A stretch of DNA of 64,000 nucleotides from Amphiscolops sp. MND2022. Lineage: Eukaryota. The position numbers were made by a program, and so were the translations under genes. Below, one piece after another: positions 3,701 to 57,200 of the stretch; the stretch's first letter is position 1, and the number at the start of each line of letters is the position of its first letter. The DNA lies in contig OZ076411.1 in the NCBI GenBank assembly GCA_964187785.1, forward strand, positions 89,652,001-89,716,000, given 5' to 3'. The notes beneath the pieces were generated by a model that saw nothing but the letters and a program-made list of their open reading frames with translations, ran no database searches and was not told the origin of the DNA.

Positions 3701-5983
3701 AAAATAACTTCTTTCCGGCGAGGTGTTGTGACGCGTCGGAGAAGGTGCTGACTGGGTGGTTGTTGTTCGTGTAGTCGCCAGCTATTAGATCGTTGATCTT
3801 TCTAAGGTCAACTAGCAGTCGGAGTCGTCCGTTTGGCTTTTGTTGTTCAGCGTATTTGCTTAACGGTAGTGTGGTTATGATGCCGTAGTAGTGCATCAGG
3901 GCTAGTTCCACTGTGAGGTCTCCTTTGAGGTTCACAGGACAGGGTAGGCTCTGCGTGTGAGCTGGTTGGTCGTTGTTTGGTGTCGGTTTTATTTTAAAGC
4001 CATGGTTGACGCCAATGTCCAGACGGTGGCGGGCAAATATGTCATGGTATTCGCGGAGTATGTTTTCGATGTCTTTCCGGTCTTGGTTCGTCCCACTTAA
4101 AATTCTCGAGGAAGTTTTGTCTGTCCTGTTGACTGGTTGTGGGGTTCAGTTTCTGGATTTCATCCAATTCTTCGATCTCCCTGAGGATCCTTCTTTAGAC
4201 AGGGGTGTGGATGGAGGGGTCACCTGGATTGTCTGGAGTTGGGAACCAAAATTAATGGATGTTTCGGGTTTTTCCGTAGTTTTCAGAAGTTCATTGACGT
4301 ATTCGAGAGCTTGTTCCAAATCGTCTTCGGTTAGGACTTTTAATGCTGCTGTGGATAAAGGTTTGACGTTTTCAGCTTTATTTGGTGCTCTGATGTGGAA
4401 ATCGGCCACCACGGTGTTCTTCTTGATGGTGAATGGGGTGGACGTTGTATTCGTGATGCGGATGGGTACTTTCATTTCGTGGACTGTGGATAGTGAGCTG
4501 GCAAGCACTATTGGTTTGTCTTCTGCATAGGCTGGCGTCAGGTGAGTGACGCCTGTGGTCTCTGCGATTGATTTGATATTGACCAGGGCTTCGACTGTGA
4601 TTCATTGGTCAGGGGCCAACGTTGTGTGGTTGAGGATGATCACTTTGTGCGGTTTTGCTGGTTGTTCATTGGATACAGGGTTTATTGCGTAGGTTAAGTG
4701 GGGGAAATGTAGGAGTCCAGGATGGCGCTATTGTTTTTTAGGAAAGTAAGGCCTAGGATGGGACCTGTGATCTTACTAGCTACAATGAACGTTTCCTTGA
4801 ATGCCCAATCGCCGATTTCAAACTGTACTTGGATTGTTTTAATTAGAGTTTCTATATCGTCATTTGCGACTTGCAGCTTGAAAGGTGGTGGATCGGCTTC
4901 CTGTAGGATGTTATTAGGACTCAGGTTTTTGAGTTTTTGGTTTTCGTTCTCGGGCATGCAGTTGACCAGGGCTCCCGTCCATTGGTGCAAATAGCATGCG
5001 TCTCTTCTGTTTGAGGGCGATTGCTGAGAATAGTGGTAGATAATGTTCACCTGTAGGATTATTTGTAATGGTGATATTTGCTAGTTGGTCTGCGTCTAGT
5101 TGTTGCAGCGAGAGTCGTCATCTTGTTGAGTATTTTCGAGTTTGGGGTCCCCAGTGGTATTGGGTTGTGGTTTTTGGTCAAATTCGCATGTCAGTGCCCG
5201 TTTGATGCGCCTTGTTTTTTGGGTTGGGGCAGCGATGGTTTGATTTGCTGGGGTGGTGCGGGAGTCCCCTGCTTTGGGTGCATCTGGTACGTTGGTGGTT
5301 GACATTTCTGGTTGTTTTGTCCTTTCCTTTATCGGGATTTCTGGACTTTGGGGAGATGAAGATGATGATGTCTATTGCTGCAAGGATTTCGTTTCTGTGT
5401 GACGGAGTTTTTGGAGGTAACTTATTCTCGGTCAGGTTGGAGATGTGCGGTTTGAGTATTGACCTGAGTGATATCGCAGGTGGTGTGACGATATCTTGTA
5501 TCTCCGGATCATGTTCCTCGGCTTGGTGTACGGGTGAATGACTATCGTTGTCGACATCTTTCCTCTTGGTGGTGTCGAGGTTCATGTTTGTTTTCTGAAC
5601 GAAGTCGTGGAAGTGTACATTGATCGTCTTTTTGAAGTTTAGAGTCACTTGGTCATATAAGTTAGGGTTGTGGTAAGGGTCACAACCGTAGTCTGGATCG
5701 TGTATGTAGGTGTCAGGAGTAGAACTGTGTGGGAGGGGCGTCTAGTTGAATTGTGCAGTTGGGGGTTTTCGTGATACCATTCTGGGTATTGCAGTTTGTC
5801 AAAGGTGGATTTATTGAACTTTATGAGGCACCTTATAAGCCATATCCACTGCCAGTCGGTAGATGGTTCACCGGAACACTCTGCGAACATTTCTAAATCG
5901 TGGTTCTTCGGGGGTTCAGATACGGTGTAGTATTTTTAATCAATGTAATCCTCGAAGCGAAGACGTGGCTTTAGAAGTTTTTT
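794..5983 (-). pseudogene. pol: pol of A1 (unknown N-terminal domain, aspartic protease, RT, RNase H, integrase), many stops and frameshifts
   Basis: Protease region ...GALVNC...GPILGLTFL; RT motifs LCKLDCSQAYH-like and QYVD; RNase H region; integrase LQMDLVP...ITDK; all collinear with element B pol. Confidence 0.9.
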
Positions 5984-11507: not shown

Positions 11508-11681
11508 AGTGGTAGCGAAGTTGCCGGAACCGGCATGTAACCAGCACTTGGAATGATGATGCAAAACGGACCCAGAATCGTAGAGCATGGCACAATGCAA
11601 TGACATCAGCAGCCAAAACTTAGAATCACGATGCCCGGGGGTCAGCAGATGGTGCCAAACGCGCACTCGATTGCTTTACAT
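11508..11681 (+). pseudogene. Decayed G/M/Q/P-rich exon, likely the post-TAZ1 linker of the CBP-like copy
   Basis: Single frame SGSEVAGTGM*PALGMMMQNGPRIVEHGTMQ*HQQPKLRITMPGGQQMVPNAH with two in-frame stops; composition typical of CBP disordered linkers (inference). Confidence 0.5.
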
Positions 11682-11759
11682 ACTAAGAACATGGAGAACT
11701 GTGATAGCAAGGGATCCGATCCCTTGCTATCACAGTTCTCCATGTTCGTAGTAAGTAAA
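11675..11759. repeat. Palindrome: 30-bp perfect arms (11687-11716 / 11718-11747), 1-nt centre, extended with mismatches
   Basis: GAACATGGAGAACTGTGATAGCAAGGGATC-C-GATCCCTTGCTATCACAGTTCTCCATGTTC. Confidence 0.95.
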
Positions 11760-11762
11760 TCA

Positions 11763-11809
11763 ATCAGGTTCTGAACAGTCATGGAGTCCATGACTGTTCA
11801 AAACCTGAT
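11763..11809. repeat. Palindrome: 23-bp arms with one mismatch, 1-nt centre
   Basis: ATCAGGTTCTGAACAGTCATGGA-G-TCCATGACTGTTCAAAACCTGAT. Confidence 0.95.
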
Positions 11810-21210: not shown

Positions 21211-21986
21211 ATCTAAACGAATCTATCAAGTTCTAATTTTTTTCGAATTACCGAATTTTTGAACATAAATTTCTAAAAATAGTAGTACTGGTTAGCTCAC
21301 TCTACTGTTGCGTCGTTAAAAACCTTGGATGTTTTAGCCCACACAAACTTTCAGAAACGGAACAAATTCTGTATGAAAACTGTCATAAATATGTTTGGCT
21401 ATTTTCGAGTCTTTTTAGAGTATTTTAGAGCACTCACGTTTTAGAGTAGATTAGAGTAGATTCTACTTTCGAGTATTTTAGAGCACTTTGTAGGCACTTT
21501 TGTATACATTAATTGCTGTGATCAGGTACTTTTTTGACATCTCCATTCAACATTTCTTTGATGTTTGATGTTTCTTTGACGTTCTTTTCATATTCTTATG
21601 TTCATTAAAACGAAGATAATTGAATTAAATTAGCTTAGAACCTTTTTTGAGGTTAGTCACTCGTAAATATGCAATCAAGTTGTAAAGTTAACTACCCGGA
21701 AGGAGCAAAGACACCTAACGTAACGAGTTTTACTACTAGGAAGGAGCATTTATTCTGATTTTCTTGCCCATCAAAATTAGCAGAATCAATTAGACTTTGA
21801 GTAGCTTAATTATTTGAAGCACCAAAGAATAGGAATGACCACCAATGTGAATGAGCAGAACGTATGAAGAAAAAAACTATACTTACCATTAATTCCAAAA
21901 TGTTTCCAGACATTACACAAATTTTTACACATAACTCTTTATGAGTGCAATGTTTTAAATTATACCATAGTATTCATCATGTTAAC

Positions 21987-23811
21987 TGTCACAGCCCCAC
22001 CTGAGCTGTGAGTTCTGCAGCAGAGCCAACCCAGTCTTCGAACAATAAATTAGGAAATGGAAAAAGGAGAAATAAAAACAGAAAACCAGAAAAAAATCAG
22101 TCCAATCCATATAACCTGAACCAATGGCGCTAAACGATATGTGCAACATAATTGATTAAATAAATATATACTTACACATATATTAGTGTTTATACAATTA
22201 TACACAGACATATATTTACGTACTTACAGCATAACGGAGCTTTGGTGCAGTTAATAATAATAATATTACAGTGCTACAGTTAACAACATGTGAACCACAC
22301 CGCCTAACGAGCGACCAAACAATTTTATAGCGAGACTGCGGCCTGGCAACCGGCCTCAAATTCAGGCCGTGAAGCGCCGGCCTGGGACGCGGCCTGAGAT
22401 CAAACCACGCTGCTAAGCACAATGCGACTGAATTAAATGTGCTAATGAATACATGTAAACGTTTTAATAACCTCTGCAGTAACTAAATGACGATATGAGT
22501 GCAATTGTCCTAATAATAGACCTTTCATATTAAATGCACTAAATACGATGAACCGCGGCCTGGGACGCGGCCTGAAAATGATTATGTACCAAGTTAATTA
22601 TAAAAGTAGTAAACGTTGATGTTATTACGTAATTTTGTTCAGGAATAAACCTGGAGCTTATTAATTGTGTTCATGAATGATATTGTCGGTTAAATTTTAC
22701 ATATAATGATTTTTTTGCATGTAAATAGTGATTGATGAACTCCGCCTGGGCCCAGGATTTAGTTGTACACATTAATAACATGTATTTCCTATTCCCCGAA
22801 CTTGTTGCTGTTGAATTACGTTAACCATCGCCCAAGATGATGCTTTTCATAATATTCGTCACCAGTATTTATTCTTTTTCTCCTGAAGTAAATTTGTCCG
22901 TCCCGGACTGTGGCGTGGGGCTAATGCCTCGCAGCTCTCAGTCAAATCAGCCTTGTAAACATCGCATAAACTGTCCTACCTTCTCATTTACTTTCCTGTG
23001 TGCGATTTTGTTAGTCTAAAACTAGAACGATGCTACTTTTATTAATCTAATGAATATTCTTGTAAAATATTGACTGTCATTTTTTTCCAAATTCTCATAC
23101 TCAATTTGCAGTACTTTTGATGATTCATCACTTTCGCTTTCGCCAAGTTCAGCTTCGGCGTCTTGAAAGAGCGGGAAATTGGAGGCGAAAGGAAGCGGAG
23201 TCGCAACTCAGACAGGAAGTGGACGCGTGCTTTCTTCGGAAAGCATGAACAAGCTGAAGGTCTGAGTTCGACAAAGCGGAACTGAACTTCCGAATTCCCC
23301 GCTTGGGATGGACGCCGGACTGAACCGCATGTGAAATGTTGTTGTGTTTTCCCCGCTCTTCGGAGAGTGATAAGTATAAATATGTTGAAATTTGGAAGCC
23401 ATTATTAGTTGAAATTTTGTTTCGTTGCGAATTAATAACTTGCTTATTAAACGACAATTAACATTTTGCAATCCGCATTTTCTTTGTTCACCAGTCAGTT
23501 TGAATTATTTCTTAGGAAATTTCGAGATCAAATCCAAACAGTTTGCCTGAGCGAAGTTCTAAGAGGAAAGCCAGACGTGAATCAATCACGAAAAGTCGGT
23601 GAATAAACGGATTAAGGACACAGAAACCGGACAACGAGAAATACTAAAAATGATAGAAAATTTGTCTTCTAAAATAGTTTCGTTGGCTGACAAGACATCT
23701 TGCGATTTGAACCAGGGTTTAAATGGAGTAAACTCTGAAACTCTGAAAACGTAATACTAGAGAATAGACCCATAGGATTAAACGAATTCCAACAAGATGT
23801 CAGTCAACACA
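21987..23811 (+). repeat. 5' LTR of B (1825 bp)
   Basis: Direct repeat of 32553-34113; followed immediately by the PBS. Confidence 0.95.
23148..23324 (+). ncRNA. Predicted conserved cis-acting RNA structure in the LTR (copies at 33364-33540, 52351-52515 and minus-strand 7641-7805)
   Basis: Nested helices with G-U pairs and compensatory changes between families A and B; cUUCGg tetraloop at 23235-23238 and 33451-33454. Confidence 0.65.
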
Positions 23812-24926
23812 TGGTGACAGGAGTATCTCCCCAAACGGAAATACCGACCCGGTCATCAAGCTTGCCGCCTTCCCAACCAGAAATACCCGGACCATATAGT
23901 GGACAAATTGCTCGAATCGCTCCGCAATGTCACCCAACAGAACATCGGATTTCCCAGACTACCGAAGGCATTGTCAACAACTATGCCCACCTTCAACAGA
24001 CGAAATGACAAATTCGAGCATTTCGAAGACCTCTTCATGACAAGCCTCAAGGTATACCCTAACATCTCTGAGGAAGAACAAATCCATTACTTCCACTCCC
24101 TACTCAGGGATGAAGCACTCCAAACATATCGCAACATGACCGACACAAATCGTGCCAGCTTAGAGGACAGCATTGCCACATTCCGACGCAGATATGCACG
24201 CCCCCAATCCATCGCAACAGCCAGATGCAAATGGGAGCAACTCCACTTTGATCCCTCACGGCAAACATTCCCAGACTTTTTGGAACAAAACCAAAAATTG
24301 GCGCAAGAGGCATACGGAGAAAACGCCCCAAAATTCATAGAAACATCTTTCTATGCCAAAATGCCGATCCACTTAAAACGAGTCCTCAACCAAGCAAGGT
24401 TGGAAACAGAATCTTACGATTTGATGGTCCAACATTTGGAGAAGGAAATGGAATTAAACCGACTGTTGGCCCCCAACGAAACCAACATAACAGGTATACA
24501 TCAAATCGAAGTACAAGAAACACAACAAGCCCCAAACACTCCCAAACCGACAGGCCCATGCTACCGATGCGGACAACCTGGCCACATTGTCAAAAATTGT
24601 CGAAAAGTAGCCCGCGAAGCCCGCAATAGAGGCAACAGAGTACCTAACAAAATCGTCGACCCATGCGAACATGTGGCAAGAAGAGCCACTCAACGCAGAA
24701 TTGCTATTCAGGCGCAAACTGGGCAAACCGACCACAATGGTGGAAAACCCCAAAAACCACGCCCCCGAACAACATTCCGATAACCCCACAACAAGGTCAG
24801 TACGTAAAAGAAAACCCACAATTAACCCAACCCCAATATCCAAACCAGACAACCGGCCAAATGGGCTACCTACCCCCACCCGAATTGACAGCTCAATCTC
24901 ACGAACAAACCCATCTCAAAAACTAG
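23544..24926 (+). pseudogene. gag: gag of B (LTR-encoded start mutated to TTG; frameshifts; two CCHC knuckles)
   Basis: MPTFNRRNDKFEHFEDLF capsid-like region; CYRCGQPGHIVKNC and frameshifted CGKKSHSTQNC knuckles; ends ...HLKN* at 24926. Confidence 0.9.
23812..23824 (+). promoter_or_regulatory. Primer-binding site TGGTGACAGGAGT
   Basis: Begins exactly where the 5' LTR stops matching the 3' LTR. Confidence 0.9.
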
Positions 24927-27900
24927 TTTCGCCACATCTTCAGTTTGGGGAAATTGTCGAAACCCGACATTTCACAACATCGGAGCCCCCAATCACGTAC
25001 GATCACGAAGAACACAATAAGCGCTGTGAACAACCATCTCTCGACTGGCAACGAAGATGGCAAATTCACAAGCTCCACAAATACAACCGTCAAACTGCGA
25101 CCAAAAAAGACTACCCACACTGGTACATTGACAACCCGACCGACTACAATACCCCAAAACGACCCCTACCTGAAAGCACCTCCCCCGAAGCCTACATCCA
25201 TAACCCCGACTTCAACTGCGACCCGTACCACAATCCCCAACTTTATGACAGAGAAACATTAACCTTTAGACAGAGAGAGTGCACGCCATTTGAGGAATAC
25301 ATCAAGAAAACAGGAATGAACATCTCAACAGAGCCACGTCACAGACCAAAAACTGTCCAACCTGTACCAGATTACGACCAAGATGTAGAGCCTGTGACAG
25401 CAATATTAGTCGATAACCCGACTAACAGACCCAAGTCCATACTCAAAAATCAGGGATCTCAAATCACGGCCCCCCAATCGCCACCAAAAGGCCAACAAGT
25501 CAACCCTATCAGAGCCGGAATCTTACGATCCCCAACAATGGACGCGGCACCCGACTGCCACCAACACGAAAACACTACCTGCAGGACCACGACTGAAGCC
25601 GTGGACCTGGCCCAACCCACAATCAACAAGAAGACAACTCCCTCCAAACCAACAACAAGGAGGATCAAGAGGTCTCTACTTTTAGAGCCCCCCCCACCTC
25701 AATAGTCAGCCGCAAGATGAAGTTGAACTCACCCAACCCATCATGACTGACGCAACTAACATGCAGCCTGAATCACAATCAGGTGTTGCAAACAGCACAC
25801 CTCAACAGGACAGCTCCAGGTCCTACCCCTCAGAGCAGACTGCAGATTACCCGAGGCAAAACCATAGGGCCAGGGGAACCCCCAATCCCCTCTCCCAAAA
25901 CGACAGTCAGTCTGAAAACGAAGTCGAGGACCCTCGACCCATAGAGACTGCCACAACGAACATGCAATCTGGATCCCCCTCAGGTGCTGAAAACGACACA
26001 CCGCCACAGGACGAACCCCAGTCCTACCCTACGTCCCAGATTGCAAATTACCTCACATGGGAACCCGTGACCAACGAGCAATGCATCCCAATCTTCTCTC
26101 TCAGCAGTGACACTCAAGAAGAAGAAGAAAATGCCATTTGCTCCAATGGATTTCCAGGACTTAACCCTGGATGCCCTCATAGATTCCGGCGCCCTTGTTA
26201 ACTGCATTTCAGAAAAAGACTACAACAAAATCTTTCAAATGTCCCCCAAAGACATAGTTAAAAAATTGGAACCACCCCTTCAAACTTCAAGTCGCAAATG
26301 GCGACATCGAAACACCAACCAAGACAGTCATCCTCCGATTCGAAATAGGGGACTGGAACTTTAAAGAAACATTCATTGTTGCCAAACGACTGACAGGCCC
26401 AATACTCGGCCTCACTTTCCTCAAGAACAATAGTGCCATCTTGGATGTGAGTCAGGGCCTGCTCCACTTCCCTCACCTCACATATTCCATCGAAACTGAT
26501 GAGTATACCTGCAACCTAAAACTCTATAAAGTCCAAATAAAGAACCCACTTACCATACCTCCCGAGGCAACGCAGACAATCACTGGCTACACGGACATAT
26601 CATCCAGCATCGACACAACCGGTGTCATCAACCCAGCCACCAATCACTGTAGCGGTGACCCACTGGTGGTAGCCAGCTCAATATCAACAGCCTCAAGCCG
26701 TAAGATCGACGTCAGGGTGACCAACATCACCCCCACACCCTACACCATAAAAAAGAATTCGACGATAGCGGAGTTCAAAATTATGTCGCCAGAAGAAGCC
26801 AAAGAACTCAAACCAATCAACACAGCAGCACTCAAAGTGCTCACCGAAGATGATTCAGAAGACGCAATAGTCTATATCAATTAACTTCTAAAAACTTCTG
26901 ACAAAGCCTCCAACAACCAAAACTTTTGGTTCCCTACGCCAAATGACCCCGGGGACCCTATTACCCACACGCCGATCCAATGCCGAATATTGCGAGAAAT
27001 AAAAGAACTGGAAGACATTCAGAAACTAAACCCTACCAACAGCGACGAAGAAAGGGAGGCATTCCTCAAAAACTTCGAATGGGATGACACACAACTGTCA
27101 ACAGACGACCAAAAAGACATCGAAGAAACACTCATCGAGTTTAACGATATTTTTGCCAGGCATCCACTGGACATTGGAATCAACCACGATTTCAAAATTA
27201 AACTCACGCCGAAAACAGATGAACCAGTCTACTCACAGAGCTTGCCCTGTCCTAATAACCTAAAAGATGACTTGACAGTGGAACTGGCATTAATGCACTA
27301 CTTCGGGATCATAACAACCCTCCCATTCAGCAAACACGCCAGCCCGATCTTTGCCCTGCGCAAACCGAATGGCCGACTGCGCCTACTAGTGGACCTCAAA
27401 AAGATCAACAACTTGATCTCGGACGATTACATAAACAACAATCATCCGGTCAGCACACTAACCGATGCCGCGCAACACCTCGCTGGCAAGAAGTTGTTTT
27501 GCAAACTTGACTGCTCACAAGCGTACCACGTACTGCAGATGGCAGACCAGAAGTCCGTCCAACTCCTCGCCTTCAACTTCGCCAGCAGAACTTTCGCGTA
27601 CCTCAGACTGGCCCAAGGACTGAGCCGATCACTATCGTCCTTCTCAAGCTTCATGCGAGAATACCTGGACAAGGCAATAAAGGCGGACAAATGCGCCCAG
27701 TACGTAGATGACATTGGAATTGCCACAAACACTCCCGAAGAGTTGAAGAACAACTTGAGAGAGGTCTTCCAATGCATCCGCGCAGCAGGACTCCGGCTTA
27801 CAATGGCCAAATGTCAGTTCGGCGCCAATGAAGTCGAAATCCTTGGGCGAACAATCTCTCCATCGGGTGTGGCGCCCCAGACCCACAAAATACAGAAGTA

Positions 27901-32050: not shown

Positions 32051-32614
32051 ATGAAGACGTCTTTATTCTCGAACGAGATCAGCCAGTACAACCAAGACAG
32101 GCCCAATACACCGCCGTCTAATTATAATATTATCAACCCAACGCAGCTTACTATTACTTATGAAAGATTTAAAACGGAAGATCTATACGTCGTCCTTGTC
32201 CATGAACAACTGCTTGAGAATGCAATTAACGCTGAAAACGAACAAGGAGTAATACGAAGATTTACTACAGACAATCCGGTTATACCAGATGATGAATTCG
32301 TGAGCTCAATCAGACGGTCCAATCAAGCAGACCAATACAGACCTGATTATATTTTCGACAGCCCTATGAGCTCGATCAGTGAGACCGACAGCAGCTCAGA
32401 AGGCTACTGGTCAGGCAGCAGTTGGGAAAGCAGCTCTTCATGGCGATCATACGATTCAATGAGAGACGACCTCACTACGCTATTTGATACACCGATACGA
32501 TCCATTTCCCAATTTCTTGTTCCCGAGGGAACAGGGCAAAGAAGCCGAGGACTGTCACAGCCCCACCTGAGCCGTGAGTTCTGCAGCAGAGACAACCCAG
32601 TCTTCGAAGAATAA
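32051..32614 (+). CDS. Uninterrupted 187-aa sense accessory ORF of B that reads through the PPT into the 3' LTR; product unknown (acidic, Ser-rich)
   Basis: ATG to TAA without lesions; last ~20 codons lie inside the LTR. Confidence 0.55.
   Translation: MKTSLFSNEISQYNQDRPNTPPSNYNIINPTQLTITYERFKTEDLYVVLVHEQLLENAINAENEQGVIRRFTTDNPVIPDDEFVSSIRRSNQADQYRPDYIFDSPMSSISETDSSSEGYWSGSSWESSSSWRSYDSMRDDLTTLFDTPIRSISQFLVPEGTGQRSRGLSQPHLSREFCSRDNPVFEE
32527..32552 (+). promoter_or_regulatory. PPT-like purine-rich tract before the 3' LTR of B
   Basis: GGGAACAGGGCAAAGAAGCCGAGGAC directly 5' of TGTCACAG; interrupted by pyrimidines. Confidence 0.55.
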
Positions 32615-34113
32615 TTAGGAAATGGAAAAAGGAGAAATGAAAGCAGAAAACCAGAAAACAATCAGTCCAATCCATATAACCTGAAACAATGGCGCTAACC
32701 GATATGTGCAACATAATTGATTAAATAAATATATACATACATATATATTGGTAATTATACAATTATACACAGACATATATTTACGTACTTACAGCATAAC
32801 GGAGCTTTGGTGCAGTTAATAATAATAATATTACAGTGCTACAGTTAACAACTGGAGCTTATTAATTGTGTTCATGAATGATATTGTCGGTTAAATATTA
32901 CATATAATGTTTTTTTTGCATGTAAATAGTGATTAATTAATAAACAAGCCTGGACCTCAGCCTGGGCCCAGGATTTAGTTGTACACATTAATAACATGTA
33001 TTTCCTATTCCCCGAACTTGTTGCTGTTGAATTACGTTAACCATCGCCCAAGATGATGTTTTTCATAATATTCGTCACCAGTATTTATTCTTTTTCTCCC
33101 GAAGTAAATTTGTCCGTCCCGGACTGTGGCCTGGGGCTAATGCCTCGCAGTTCTCAGTCAAATCAGCCTTGTAAACATCGCATAAACTGTCCTACCTACT
33201 CATTTACTTTCCTGTGTGCGATTTTGTTAGTCTAAAACTAGAACGATGCTACTTTTTTTAATCTAAAGAATATTTTTGTAAAATATTGACTGTCATTTTT
33301 TTCCAAATTCTCATACTCAATTTGCAGTACTTTTGATGATTCATCACTTTCGCTTTCGCCAAGTTCAGCTCCGGCGTCTTGAAAGAGCGGGAAATTGGAG
33401 GCGAAGGGAAGCGGAGTCGCAACTCAGACAGGAAGTGGACGCGTGCTTTCTTCGGAAAGCATGAACAAGCTGAAGGTCTGAGTTCGACAAAGCGGAACTG
33501 AACTTCCGGTTTCCCCGCTTGGGATGGACGCCGGACTGAACGGCATGTGAAATGTTGTTGAGTTTTCCCCGCTCTTCGGAGAGTGAAAAGTATAAATATG
33601 TTGAAATTTGGAAGCCATTTTTAGTTGAAATTTTGTTTCGTTGCGAATTAATAACTTGCTAAGTAAACGACAATTAACATTTTGCAATCCGCATTTTCTG
33701 TGTTCACCAGTCAGTTTAAAATATTTTTTAGGAAATTTTGAGATCAAATATAAACAGTATGCCTGAGCGAAGTTCTAAGAGGAAAGCCAGACGTGAATCA
33801 ATCACTAGTTCGGTAGATGAGCCAGAGTGTTCGAGCATGAAGACGGGAAACGTCCCCAGCATTTCCGACAAAGACTTTGCTGATTTGACAGGAAAAAATC
33901 GTAAGTCGGTGAATAAACGGATTAAGGACACAGAAACCGGACAACGAGAAATACTAAAAGTGATAGAAAATTTGTCTTCTAAAATAGTTTCGTTGGCTGA
34001 CAAGACATCTTGCGATTTGAACCAGGATTTAAATGGAGTAAACTCTGAAAACGTAATACTAGAGAATAGACCCATAGGATTAAACGAATTCCAACAAGAT
34101 GTCAGTCAACACA
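32553..34113 (+). repeat. 3' LTR of B (1561 bp)
   Basis: Direct repeat of 21987-23811; preceded by a purine-rich tract; followed by the TSD. Confidence 0.95.
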
Positions 34114-34301
34114 TTAGCGTGTTTCAACTGGTTTACACAACAACTGATTTGAGCAAAGTTGAAAACAGTGAAAGTTGTCACCAGCCTACACACTTTGATT
34201 GTTTTTCACTTTGAAAACGAATTCCAATCAAAAGGTGTACCAAATTAAAGTGTAAAACAATCAATTTCCGTCAACGTAAGAAGTGGAAATGAGTCAGAGT
34301 A

Positions 34302-39251: not shown

Positions 39252-39464
39252 CCCGGCCAAAAGACACTAGATTCAGCCCAGGAAGTCATGCAGGTGACAC
39301 CTTGATGAGCAGAATGCAGTGTGCCTTTGATTAGTGCTCTCAGTGGTGATGGGATATGTTATCCCATCACCACTGAGAGCACTAATCATAGGCACACTGC
39401 ATTCTGCTCATCAAGGTGTCACCTGCATGACTTCCTGGGCTGAATCTAGTGTCTTTTGGCCGGG
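39252..39464. repeat. Palindrome with 105-bp arms, 3-nt loop and one mismatch
   Basis: 39252-39356 is the reverse complement of 39360-39464; the right arm is the integrase coding strand. Confidence 0.95.
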
Positions 39465-53199: not shown

Positions 53200-53212
53200 T
53201 GGTGACAGGAGT
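53200..53212 (+). promoter_or_regulatory. Primer-binding site TGGTGACAGGAGT
   Basis: Same 13-mer as in A1 and B. Confidence 0.85.
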
Positions 53213-54247
53213 ATTCACGAACCAACAAGAGAACAAGCATCAGCGATCATCAAGCCTACCACCTCCAAACCAGAGGTCCCCGATGATATCATTGACAAAT
53301 TACTAAAATAGTTGCAAACTGCAACCAACCACAATTCTGGCGTCCCCACACTACCCAAGGCCATGTCTACCACCATGCCAACTTTCGACGGCAAAACTGA
53401 CAAACTCGAGCACTTCGAGGACATCTTTCAGACAAGCCTCAAGGTGTATCCGAACATCATAGAGAAAAAAAACATTATTTTTATTCCCTCCTGAGAGGCG
53501 AAGCATTGCGAACATTCAGGAATGTGACGGAAGCAACACGGGAACACCTCAACGACATCCTTGCAGGCTTCTACCGCAGATACGTGAGACAACAATCAGT
53601 GGGAACAGCACGCTGCAAATGGAAAAATATGTCCTTTAACCCAAGCCAACAAACATTCCCAGATTTTCTAGAACAGTTTCAGAAGTTGGCCCGGGAAGCC
53701 TATGGAGAGGACGCCCCCCGTTTCATAGAGACCTCTTTCGATGCCAAGATGCCACCTCACCTCAAGTGGGTCTTAAACCAAGCCCGACTTGAAACAGTGT
53801 CATACGAAACCATGGTACAACACCTGGAGAAGGAAATCGAACTCAATGGACTTGCCACTACTGACAGCCCATCTACTACAGGGGTACACAACCTCGAACC
53901 AAGTCTACAACAACATAAACAACAACAACAACAAGAGAAACCGCCCGAAACAACATGAATATGATTCGGGTGTGGCAACCCGGGACATATGCTACGAAAC
54001 TGTCGTAAGACAAACAGGGACAAACGATCCCAGAGAACGAAATTCCAACTCAAACTACACCGTGTGAAACATGCGGAAATATGAGCCACGAGACCAAAGA
54101 TTGTTACTCGGGAGCGAACTGGGCAAACCGCCCAACGTGGTGGAAAACACCCAAAACAAAACCACCAAACAATATCCTGATCCTTCAACAATCACAAACC
54201 ACCCCAATGCAGCAGCCACAAACCATGGCACCAACAGATACCGAATT

Positions 54248-54254
54248 AAAAAAC
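54248..54254 (+). promoter_or_regulatory. -1 ribosomal frameshift slippery heptamer A AAA AAC (also minus-strand 5977-5983; C AAA AAC at 24917-24923)
   Basis: X XXY YYZ heptamer in gag phase, just before the gag stop; the -1 frame opens into the conserved pol N-terminus. Confidence 0.75.
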
Positions 54255-57200
54255 TTCTAAAGCCACGTCTTTGCTTCGGGGAATACATTGACTACAGTTA
54301 CTACACCATATCTGAACCATCTATTAGAAATGTTCGCAGAGTGTTCCGGTGAACCATCTACCGACTGTCAGCAAAGATGGCTCATAAGGCGCCTCATAAA
54401 GTTCAATAAATCCACCATTGACAAACTGCAATACCCAGAACGGTATCACGAAAACCCCAAACTGTACATTTCAACTAGACGCCCCCTCCCATCCAGTTCT
54501 ACTCCTGACACCTACATACACGATCCACACTACGGTTGTGACCCTTAGCACAACCCTGACTTATATGACCAAGTGACTCTAACCTTCAAAAAGACGATCA
54601 ATGTACCCTTCCACGACTTCGTTAAGAGAACGAACATGAACCTAGACATCGCCAAGAGAAAATATGTTGACATTGATAGTCACTCACCCGCACACGAAGC
54701 CGAGGAACACGATCCGGAGATACAAGTTATCGTCACAACACCTGCGGTATCACTCAGGTCAATACTCAAACCACACATCTCCAACCTGACCGAGAACAGG
54801 TCACCACCAAAAGCTTCGTCACACACAAACGCAATCCGGGCAGCAAGGACATCATCACCTTCATTTCCCCAAATGGCAGAACTCCCAATAAAAGAAAGGA
54901 CAAAGCAACCAGAAATCTCATCCATCAACGTACCAGATGCATACAAAGCTGGGGACTCTCCCAACACCCCTGCAAATCAAACAATTACTGACCCAACCCA
55001 AAAAACAAGGCGCATCAAACGGGCACTGATATGCGAGTTTGACCAAAAACCACAACCCAATACCACTGGGGACACTAAACCTGAAAATTTTCAACAAGAC
55101 GACGACAACTCGCTGCTACAACTAGACCCAAATCAACTAGCAAAAATCACTATTACAAACAATCCAACAGGGGAACAATATCTACCACTATTCTCGGCAA
55201 TCGCCCTCAAACAGAAGAGACGCATGAGTTTCGCACCAATGAACTTTCAACACTTCTCTCCTCATCGATTCGGGAGCCCTGGTCAACTGCATGCCCAAAA
55301 ACGAATACCAAAAACTCAAAAACATGAGTCCCAATAACATCCTACAGGTAGCTGATCCACCACCTTTCAAACTGCGAGTCGCAAATGGCGATATAGAAAC
55401 CCCAATCAAAACAATCCAAGTACATTTTGAAATGGGCGACTGGACATTCCAGGAAACGTTCGTTGTACATAGTAAGATCACAGGTCCCATCCTAGGGGTT
55501 ACTTTCCTAAAAAACAATAGCGCCATCCTGGACGCCAGTCAGGGACTCCTACATTTCCCCCACTTAACCTACGCAATAAACCCTGCATGTGACGAACAGC
55601 CAGCAAAACCGCACAAAGTGATCACCCTCAACCAGACAACGTTGGCCCCCAACCAATGCATCACAGTCGAGGCCCTGGTCAACATCAAATCAATCGCAGA
55701 CACCATCGGCGTCATTCAACCGACGCCAGCCTATGCAGAAGACAAACCAATAGTGCTTGCCAGCTAACTATCCACAGTCCACGAAATGAAAGTGCCCATC
55801 CGAATCACGGATATCTCACCCACACCATTCACCATCAGGAAGAACACACTGGTGGCCGAATTCCACATCACATCTCCAAATGAAGCTAAAAACATCAAAC
55901 CTTTATCGACAGCTGCATTAAAAGTCCTAACCGAAGACGATTCAGAACAAGCACTTCAATACGTCAACGAACTCCTGAAAACTACCGAAAAACTTGAAAC
56001 AGCCCAGCAGTTCTCGTTCCCAACTCCAGACAATCCAGGCGACCCCTCCACCCACGCACTTGTCCGAAGAAGGATCCTCAGGGAGATCGAAGAATTGAAG
56101 GAAATTCAAGAACTGAACCCCTCAACCAGTCAACAAGATAGACAAACATTCTTCGAGAATTTTAAGTGAGATGATTCCCAATTACACGACCAAGACCGGA
56201 AATGTATCGAGAACTTACTCGTCAAATACCATGACATATTTGCCCGCCTCCGTCTGGACATTGGCGTCAACCATGACTTCAAAATAAAACTGACACCAAA
56301 AAACGACCAACCAGCTTCCACGCAGAGCCTACCCTGTCCTGTGAACCTCAAAGTAGACCTCACAGTGGAACTAGCGTTGATGCACTACTACGGCATCATA
56401 ACCACACTACCTTTCAACAAATACGCTAGCAGCCCATATTCGCTCAACAAAAACCAAACGGGCGACTTCGACTGCTAGTTGACCTTAGAAAGATCAACAA
56501 TCTAATAGCTGACGACGACACCAACAACAACCACCCAGTCAGCACCCTCTCCGACGCAACCTAACACCTCGCTGGAAAGAAGTTATTTTGCAAGCTAGAC
56601 TGCTCCCAGGCTTACCACGTCTTGCAAATGGCAGACAAAAAGTCGGTAGAACTACTAGCTTTCAATTTCGCCATTCGAACATTCGCGTACCTGTGACTCG
56701 CACAAGAGCTCAGCAGGTCCCTCTCCTCCATCTCGAGCTTCATGAGAGAATATCTCGATCGAGTCATCAAAGCTGACAAATGCGCTCAGTACGTCGACGA
56801 CATCGGGATTGCCATCCACAACGCCGAGGAGCTGAAGATCAACCCGGGTGAGGTTTTTCAGTGCGTCCGAGAAGCAGGATTGCGTTTGACAATGATCAAA
56901 TGCCAGTTCAGCGCCAAGGAAGTCCAATTCCTCGTACAAACTTTGTCACCCGAAGGAATTGCCCCACAAGACCAGAAGATCCAAAACTACCTGCAAAAAC
57001 TGACCTTCCCAGAAACCAAAAAAGGCCTGCAACGCTACATTGGATTTGTTAACTATTATCGGAATTACATCCCTAGACTTTCCGAAAAGATAGCTCCGTT
57101 CCACGAAATTATCAAAGCAGAAAAACCCATCTAGACCACAAACGAGATAATGAACAGCTTCAAAAATATTAACAATTCTTTAGACAACGCGTGCGGCCTG

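Follow-up and report, generated by a model that had tools for sequence, protein, structure and literature searches.

The stretch of DNA analysed here (the window) comprises 64,000 nucleotides from Amphiscolops sp. MND2022 and carries three copies of a Ty3/gypsy element, A1, A2 and B, which were located by six-frame translation of the window. Copy B codes for Gag with a zinc knuckle, followed by protease, reverse transcriptase (RT), RNase H and integrase according to a Pfam scan. The Pol order PR-RT-RH-IN, found with Pfam in copy B and in two intact Pol frames, assigns the element to Ty3/gypsy, and the best solved relative of Pol by PDB sequence is Ty3 (PDB 7q5b). A first-pass annotation had described a conserved, unassigned domain of ~100 aa at the N-terminus of Pol. 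Indeed, each of the three copies has the segment, at 54351-54650 and 25031-25330 on the plus strand and at ~5870-5570 on the minus strand, and all three are broken elsewhere in the element. In A2 the segment holds one TAG (54546-54548), in B it sits within a 364-aa open frame, and in A1 it is interrupted by a frameshift. The segments of B and A2 are identical at 47 of 99 residues, gap-free, with a nucleotide identity of only 56%, and their global alignment score is 280, the maximum among 1000 shuffles being 29. A1 and A2, both decayed copies, are 85% identical. The features of the three copies are as follows.

54248..54254, plus strand: slippery heptamer A_AAA_AAC at the end of gag in copy A2, invariant in 25/25 copies of lineages A-E and H-type
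54248..54350, plus strand: first 35 codons of the transframe segment in A2, frameshifted and ~11 nt short here, coinciding with a covarying 8-bp stem of the relatives
54258-54260, plus strand: gag stop of A2, with pol in the -1 frame
54262..54265, plus strand: predicted 5' strand of the stimulator in A2, four bases 7 nt past the heptamer, whose complementarity to the downstream hairpin loop holds in intact relatives
54354..54380, plus strand: RNA hairpin under codons 39-48 in A2, loop and stem substituted in this dead copy
54381..54587, plus strand: protein-selected core in A2, with the stop at 54546-54548
54588..54650, plus strand: C-terminal extension in A2, conserved only in lineages A and B
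54651..55170, plus strand: low-complexity linker in A2, with RRIKR at 55008-55022 and a frameshifted protease next
24917..25330, plus strand: segment of copy B, stop-free, heptamer altered at its first base
25034-25060, plus strand: hairpin of copy B
25160-25267, plus strand: RP...LxF module of copy B
5570..5983, minus strand: segment of copy A1, heptamer at 5983-5977, codon 16 being a stop and the frame shifting near codon 84

The core consists of the remainder of a basic helix and then an acidic, aromatic RP...DP(Y/W)...LxF module. The domain as first drawn is real, but its limits had to be moved. Its true start is the slip site (A2 54248, B 24917, A1 5983), 35 codons earlier, and the part shared across lineages stops at the LxF motif near codon 118 (A2 54587) and not at 54650. 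The last 20 codons are kept in lineages A and B only, where the segment is 138 aa long in 30 of the 33 distinct sequences. The proposal of a transframe protein was borne out; in intact copies gag stops 0-1 codons past A_AAA_AAC and pol goes on in the -1 frame. Release by the protease, which had been proposed as well, is conjectural, and no cleavage site for it was identified. The segment is also upstream of the protease, as had been claimed, but does not adjoin it: counted from the slip site, the catalytic Asp of the protease lies at codon 222-432 (12/12 copies). Immediately ahead of the protease there is a separate conserved stretch, which every lineage has, even F and I. The RRIKR motif of the linker, likewise reported as conserved, is so in lineages A and B but is missing from all 15 Pol N-termini examined in lineages C-F. 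The linker of lineage B owes its extra length to an internal duplication of 150 nt with 74-77% identity (L031-L033 and L035-L037, positions 3732-4081; window 25686-26201).

The 1.07-Gb genome yielded 4552 candidate copies, and approximately 30 of the 150 scored sit in open frames of at least 1800 aa. Four relatives with both ends read are from 15.5 to at least 16.6 kb long, and their LTR pairs are 99.1-99.95% identical (4/4). TG...CA ends, a 5-bp target duplication and a primer-binding site (PBS) starting with TGG were found in three of the four, the fourth (lineage F) being read in part. A search with the protease region gave 83 Pol relatives, and 11 remoter ones (41-49% identical in the protease region) match the profile of lineages A and B with E-values of 2e-6 to 7e-21. 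From genomic copies, lineages C to F were distinguished, of which C, D and E have the segment and F lacks it; lineage G is known from proteins only. Among the 108-150 candidates scored per search, lineage I had no match in this genome with two query sequences, and neither had proteins P0157 and P0177 at E<=1e-45.

Several other properties of the elements and of the window were observed. The gag frame begins within the 5' LTR and runs through the LTR/PBS junction (L156, L158, L160; window 53200-53220 and ~23810), and the conserved Gag motif MVTG is the LTR/PBS junction itself; the PBS resembles a presumed tRNA-Leu site. A beta-rich insert after the protease is under purifying selection (residues ~445-590 of the L070 Pol; window ~55570-55900) and resembles a dUTPase in degenerate form; 2 of the 83 Pol relatives carry a PF00692 annotation. 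Between pol and the 3' LTR lies an antisense open frame of 820-870 aa (L157:1071-3530 and L159:668-3277, both minus strand), and L161 and L163 have two minus-strand frames each at this position. Its Cys/His pattern is presumably BED-like; no Pfam family was found for it above the E 0.05 threshold, and the ESM Atlas gave weak leads to hAT/FAM200 clusters (0.80-0.82). A role of the segment tied to this antisense gene was rejected, since lineage F retains the gene without the module. Pairs of copies ~13.6 kb apart (G000:C10:2596086/2609725, C8:18270128/18283736 and C5:49407125/49420754) show the spacing expected for tandem elements with a common LTR. The window also contains two near-perfect inverted repeats (11669-11809 and 39252-39464), and copy B is flanked by a direct repeat of ~1.5 kb that is 95% identical (21985-23812 vs 32551-34114).

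Gag is linked to pol in the -1 frame by a heptamer of the X_XXY_YYZ type. It is A_AAA_AAC in every copy of lineages A-E and H-type and in 14 of the 15 copies of a second set, the exception being window copy B, at base 1, and U_UUA_AAC in 3/3 copies of lineage F. The nucleotides that follow it are under constraints of their own. Synonymous change, pooled from six independent pairs and also followed in windows per lineage, is suppressed compared with the core (pS 0.60, interval 0.52-0.68) and the protease (0.68): pS is 0.14 (0.06-0.24) for codons 1-12 and 0.33 (0.19-0.51) for those of the hairpin, the bootstrap intervals being non-overlapping or touching. The suppressed stretches, codons 1-12 and 39-49, the latter including 'PSLDWQRRW', are both on covarying RNA stems. 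RNAalifold predicts an 8-bp stem under codons 10-27, and three of its eight pairs change on both sides; in the hairpin under codons 39-48 covariation is seen in the upper stem. The hairpin loop holds a Trp codon exactly 122 nt past the heptamer in 17/17 copies of lineages A-E and H-type, and it is complementary to four bases beginning 7 nt past the heptamer in 25/25 copies. Codon 5 specifies eight different amino acids, yet its final base is G in 25/25 copies, the background use of those codons being 9-32%, and the base after the Trp codon remains C even where Gln is replaced by Leu.

When the structure is scored in its entirety, both partners of a pair have changed in 44 cells, compared with 17.9 +/- 3.4 in shuffles, and 76.6% of the cells are paired, compared with 28-45% in slid controls; these figures are to be read with the RNA structure being derived from the same sequences that scored it and with related copies inflating the pairing counts. 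Over all lineages, pairing is found in 72% of the cells for the hairpin and in 70% for the first stem, which is weak in lineages D and E. A stimulatory structure would be expected to start 5-9 nt past the heptamer; the predicted loop pairing starts at +7 but, being only 4 bp long and invariant, is unable to covary. With a covariance model the copies A1, A2 and B are all recovered (E 1e-31 to 3e-21), as are, weakly, the three copies of lineage F (E 0.0007-0.009, rough values). An additional weak match at L128:342-471 (E 0.019) is possibly due to chance, and the RNA structure had no match in Rfam. Judged from conservation and covariation, the pairing with the hairpin loop 122 nt downstream is likely to be a frameshift stimulator, and the first ~49 codons of the segment likely double as a -1 frameshift signal.

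Downstream of these codons the constraint is of a different kind. Codons 50-118 are under protein-level purifying selection: their dN/dS is 0.106 (0.068-0.155) with a pN of 0.12, and that of the last 36 codons, the DP(Y/W) module, is 0.088, the values for the linker and the protease being 0.372 (0.297-0.456) and 0.030, respectively. The core dN/dS is also low inside each of five lineages (0.05-0.22), with weaker constraint on the middle part in lineage D, whose pair gives 0.28. Could the conservation nevertheless be entirely a matter of RNA structure or of another frame, with the peptide as a passive spacer? For codons 1-12 and 39-49 the RNA account is true in large part, and some lineages do without the protein part. 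The conservation that had been ascribed to the protein stands for codons 50-118 but is largely explained by RNA structure in the first 12 codons and the 'PSLDWQRRW' block. A better explanation by RNA structure, which the first-pass annotation had itself named as refuting its reading, applies in part. For codons 50-118 the RNA-only account is largely refuted, because their synonymous sites are about as free as those of the protease while few amino acids change. There is no consistent folding signal past the first 90-nt window, and another reading frame as the cause is ruled against by the other five frames, which carry 2-10 stops each in 6/6 intact copies. As a full explanation, RNA or an overlapping frame thus has hardly any probability left.

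For the segment as a protein, AlphaFold, given 100 alignment rows from approximately six lineages, predicted no confident overall fold (mean pLDDT 66, pTM 0.33; 46 rows had given pLDDT 41), and the low pTM may stem from the shallowness of the alignment. The model is confident locally, for a helix at residues 42-59 and for residues 91-120 (pLDDT 83-89 in blocks of ten). The helix region contains Trp and is basic (net charge +2.8), and the C-terminal module is acidic and aromatic (-3.7). The first-pass annotation had left the domain unassigned, and so it stays: neither Pfam nor PDB nor the ESM Atlas gave a match. In Pfam there was none for 13/13 members at E<=10, and the best for three further lineages had E 0.081; among PDB sequences the best profile match had E 0.55 and another search gave none. 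Foldseek found nothing in PDB and BFVD at E<=0.001, the pTM of the query model being such that a relative may escape. A wide VIA-align search gave a best Z of 3.3 with matches covering residues 37-87 only, and none of the 148 pattern matches in viral contigs was confirmed. A profile search of 1.84 billion representatives returned 119 matches, and no non-element homologue was seen among them; nearly all of the 109 new ones align to the element lineages, and one of the 109 has a Pfam domain, a protease. A late-domain motif was rejected, as there is no PPxY and the YP stretch is missing from lineages D and E.

A further idea is that the element has captured a small domain, enzymatic or metal-binding, that escaped recognition. 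In the C-terminal module Arg, two Asp, Tyr, Leu and Phe are near-invariant, and the length of the segment is constant in lineages A and B. A compact fold is not predicted by AlphaFold, however, and neither the searches of PDB sequences and structures and of viral structures nor the 119 profile matches offered a counterpart outside the element, which leaves a captured enzyme improbable.

The module varies among lineages. In lineage F (3/3 copies read) the protein part is gone, and the four bases, the hairpin and a heptamer are kept, one copy having a substitution in the hairpin loop. Lineage I, represented by protein P0272, also has no protein part, as seen at the protein level. The F copies and P0272 retain only the PRL and WQ motifs, i.e., the RNA-determined parts. 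Both module-less lineages, F (L121, L123, L124) and P0272, start pol with FKL (U_UUA_AAC in F); the heptamer type is not strictly linked to module loss, since P0157, P0173 and P0177, with the full module, start with FKL as well. In the H-type proteins P0091, P0182, P0191, P0205, P0207, P0230 and P0241 an internal deletion of ~28 residues has been noted, and the DP(Y/W) motif is absent; on these sequences, the module is eroded within the H group. The H-type locus L131 has the full segment, its grouping being based on the WL(K/R)RQA motif and not on RT.

A quick tree was built from RT/RNase H of 39 rows, P0078 and P0129 being omitted because they lack a YxDD match. In it the earliest branches are A and B (support 86), one group joins F to D, E and G (97), and another joins I to C and H (92). 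F and I are both nested among domain-bearing lineages. The module is probably ancestral in the clade, and on this tree two losses and one erosion would be the simplest reading; recombination could have given the 5' region a history other than that of RT. Lineage F has probably been active recently without the module, because its Pol frames are long and open (1639-1656 aa) and its LTR pair is 99.1% identical. The segment is therefore not essential in every lineage, as F and I exist without the protein part. Of 472 invariant Pol positions, three are changed in both F and I, which differ at 23-24 positions each (controls 4-55), and no shared change compensating for module loss was found among the 472.

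These data bear on the idea that the segment acts like HIV-1 p6*, delaying or timing protease activation in Gag-Pol before being cut off. It occupies the same genomic slot, past a -1 slip and ahead of the protease, and p6* modulates protease activation (PMC4451514). However, a variable linker intervenes here, placing the catalytic Asp hundreds of codons past the slip site, whereas p6* is 56 aa long and directly upstream of the protease (PMC4451514). Furthermore, the element has its own conserved stretch right before the protease, and the module was lost in F and I without shared protease changes. Protease timing is consequently an unlikely role.

A module that binds the RNA of the element itself, acting in frameshift feedback, packaging or primer placement, has also been considered. 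The helix with its Trp and positive charge would suit such a role, the segment is made only after the frameshift and adjoins the zinc knuckles, and the predicted loop pairing, of 4-5 bp only, might need stabilising. On the other hand, the best conserved protein-only part is the acidic one, lineage F retains the RNA signal without the protein, and the conservation of WQ is explained by RNA, making RNA binding unlikely as well. Its most specific form, in which the segment binds its own long-range RNA signal and sets the Gag:Pol ratio by feedback, a protein-assisted -1 frameshift, appears highly improbable; were it true, lineages with a shortened RNA signal would need the protein no longer.

The reading we favour, to which we give about an even chance, is that codons 50-118 form an optional, partly ordered binding adaptor on Gag-Pol, behind the first ~49 codons that likely double as RNA signal. 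An accessory adaptor is suggested because the chain is locally ordered and coreless, is under moderate selection, can be dispensed with and shows no link to changes in Pol. In this scheme ribosomes would slip -1 at the heptamer, stimulated by the pairing of the four bases 7 nt downstream with the distal hairpin loop. Only the minority product Gag-Pol would then have the segment, which would be anchored behind the zinc knuckles, with the long variable linker between it and the protease. The basic helix and the small acidic-aromatic module, sharing no common core, would become ordered on a partner protein, and the adaptor would tune assembly or localisation, not catalysis. A partner other than the Pol enzymes is the likelier case, a host protein being a tentative candidate and Gag or the segment itself a doubtful one.

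Whatever its role, the segment is a real, long-conserved, lineage-restricted and undescribed protein module that overlaps a candidate frameshift signal; no published description was found in the literature searched, most subscription papers, GyDB and Repbase being out of reach. To our knowledge, Gag-Pol transframe segments, which are usually short, have been studied well only in retroviruses such as HIV-1. The layout of the candidate signal is unusual in that a loop ~120 nt downstream pairs back to bases past the slip site. Moreover, the family has many young copies, and its natural lineages keep the module in full, have it shortened or lack it, which allows a direct comparison of both the RNA signal and the protein module. 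The reach of the finding is limited, as the segment was found only in this Ty3/gypsy clade and its function is a proposal.

Several known systems resemble parts of this arrangement. The p30 protein of MMTV is a nucleocapsid-dUTPase transframe protein and, similarly to the segment, is a defined domain fused behind the nucleocapsid by a -1 shift. The segment, in contrast, has no similarity to dUTPase, and the dUTPase-like insert of the element lies after the protease. Yeast Ty3 uses a +1 shift. The element and Ty3 have the Ty3/gypsy domain order in common, and the Pol of each includes an additional, non-enzymatic segment; in Gag3-Pol3 of Ty3, with the order PR-J-RT-IN (PMC5371799), the J segment follows the protease, whereas here the extra segment precedes it. 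At the RNA level, A_AAA_AAC is among the most shift-prone eukaryotic heptamers, and loop-loop or long-distance stimulators are known in viruses, namely the 'kissing stem loops' of HCoV-229E and barley yellow dwarf virus (PMC5009743). The candidate signal is similar to these in that pairing begins 7 nt past the heptamer and a hairpin loop provides the partner strand. It differs in its 5' strand, which has 4-5 bases and is not in an evident stem-loop of its own, and in the partner, which is within coding sequence at a distance of 122 nt, or of 53-56 nt in lineage F. Finally, with HIV-1 p6*, of which 35 of the 56 residues are deletable (PMC4451514), the segment has in common that it is a pol-frame stretch between a -1 slip site and the protease, present in Gag-Pol only and partly dispensable. 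A sequence match between the two was not found, and the segment is not assigned to the p6* type, because, although its pol-frame coding begins immediately past the slip site, it neither abuts the N-terminus of the protease nor resembles p6* in sequence. Compared with p6*, it is approximately twice as long, has a conserved helix and an aromatic module, does not overlap gag and is followed by a long linker before the protease.
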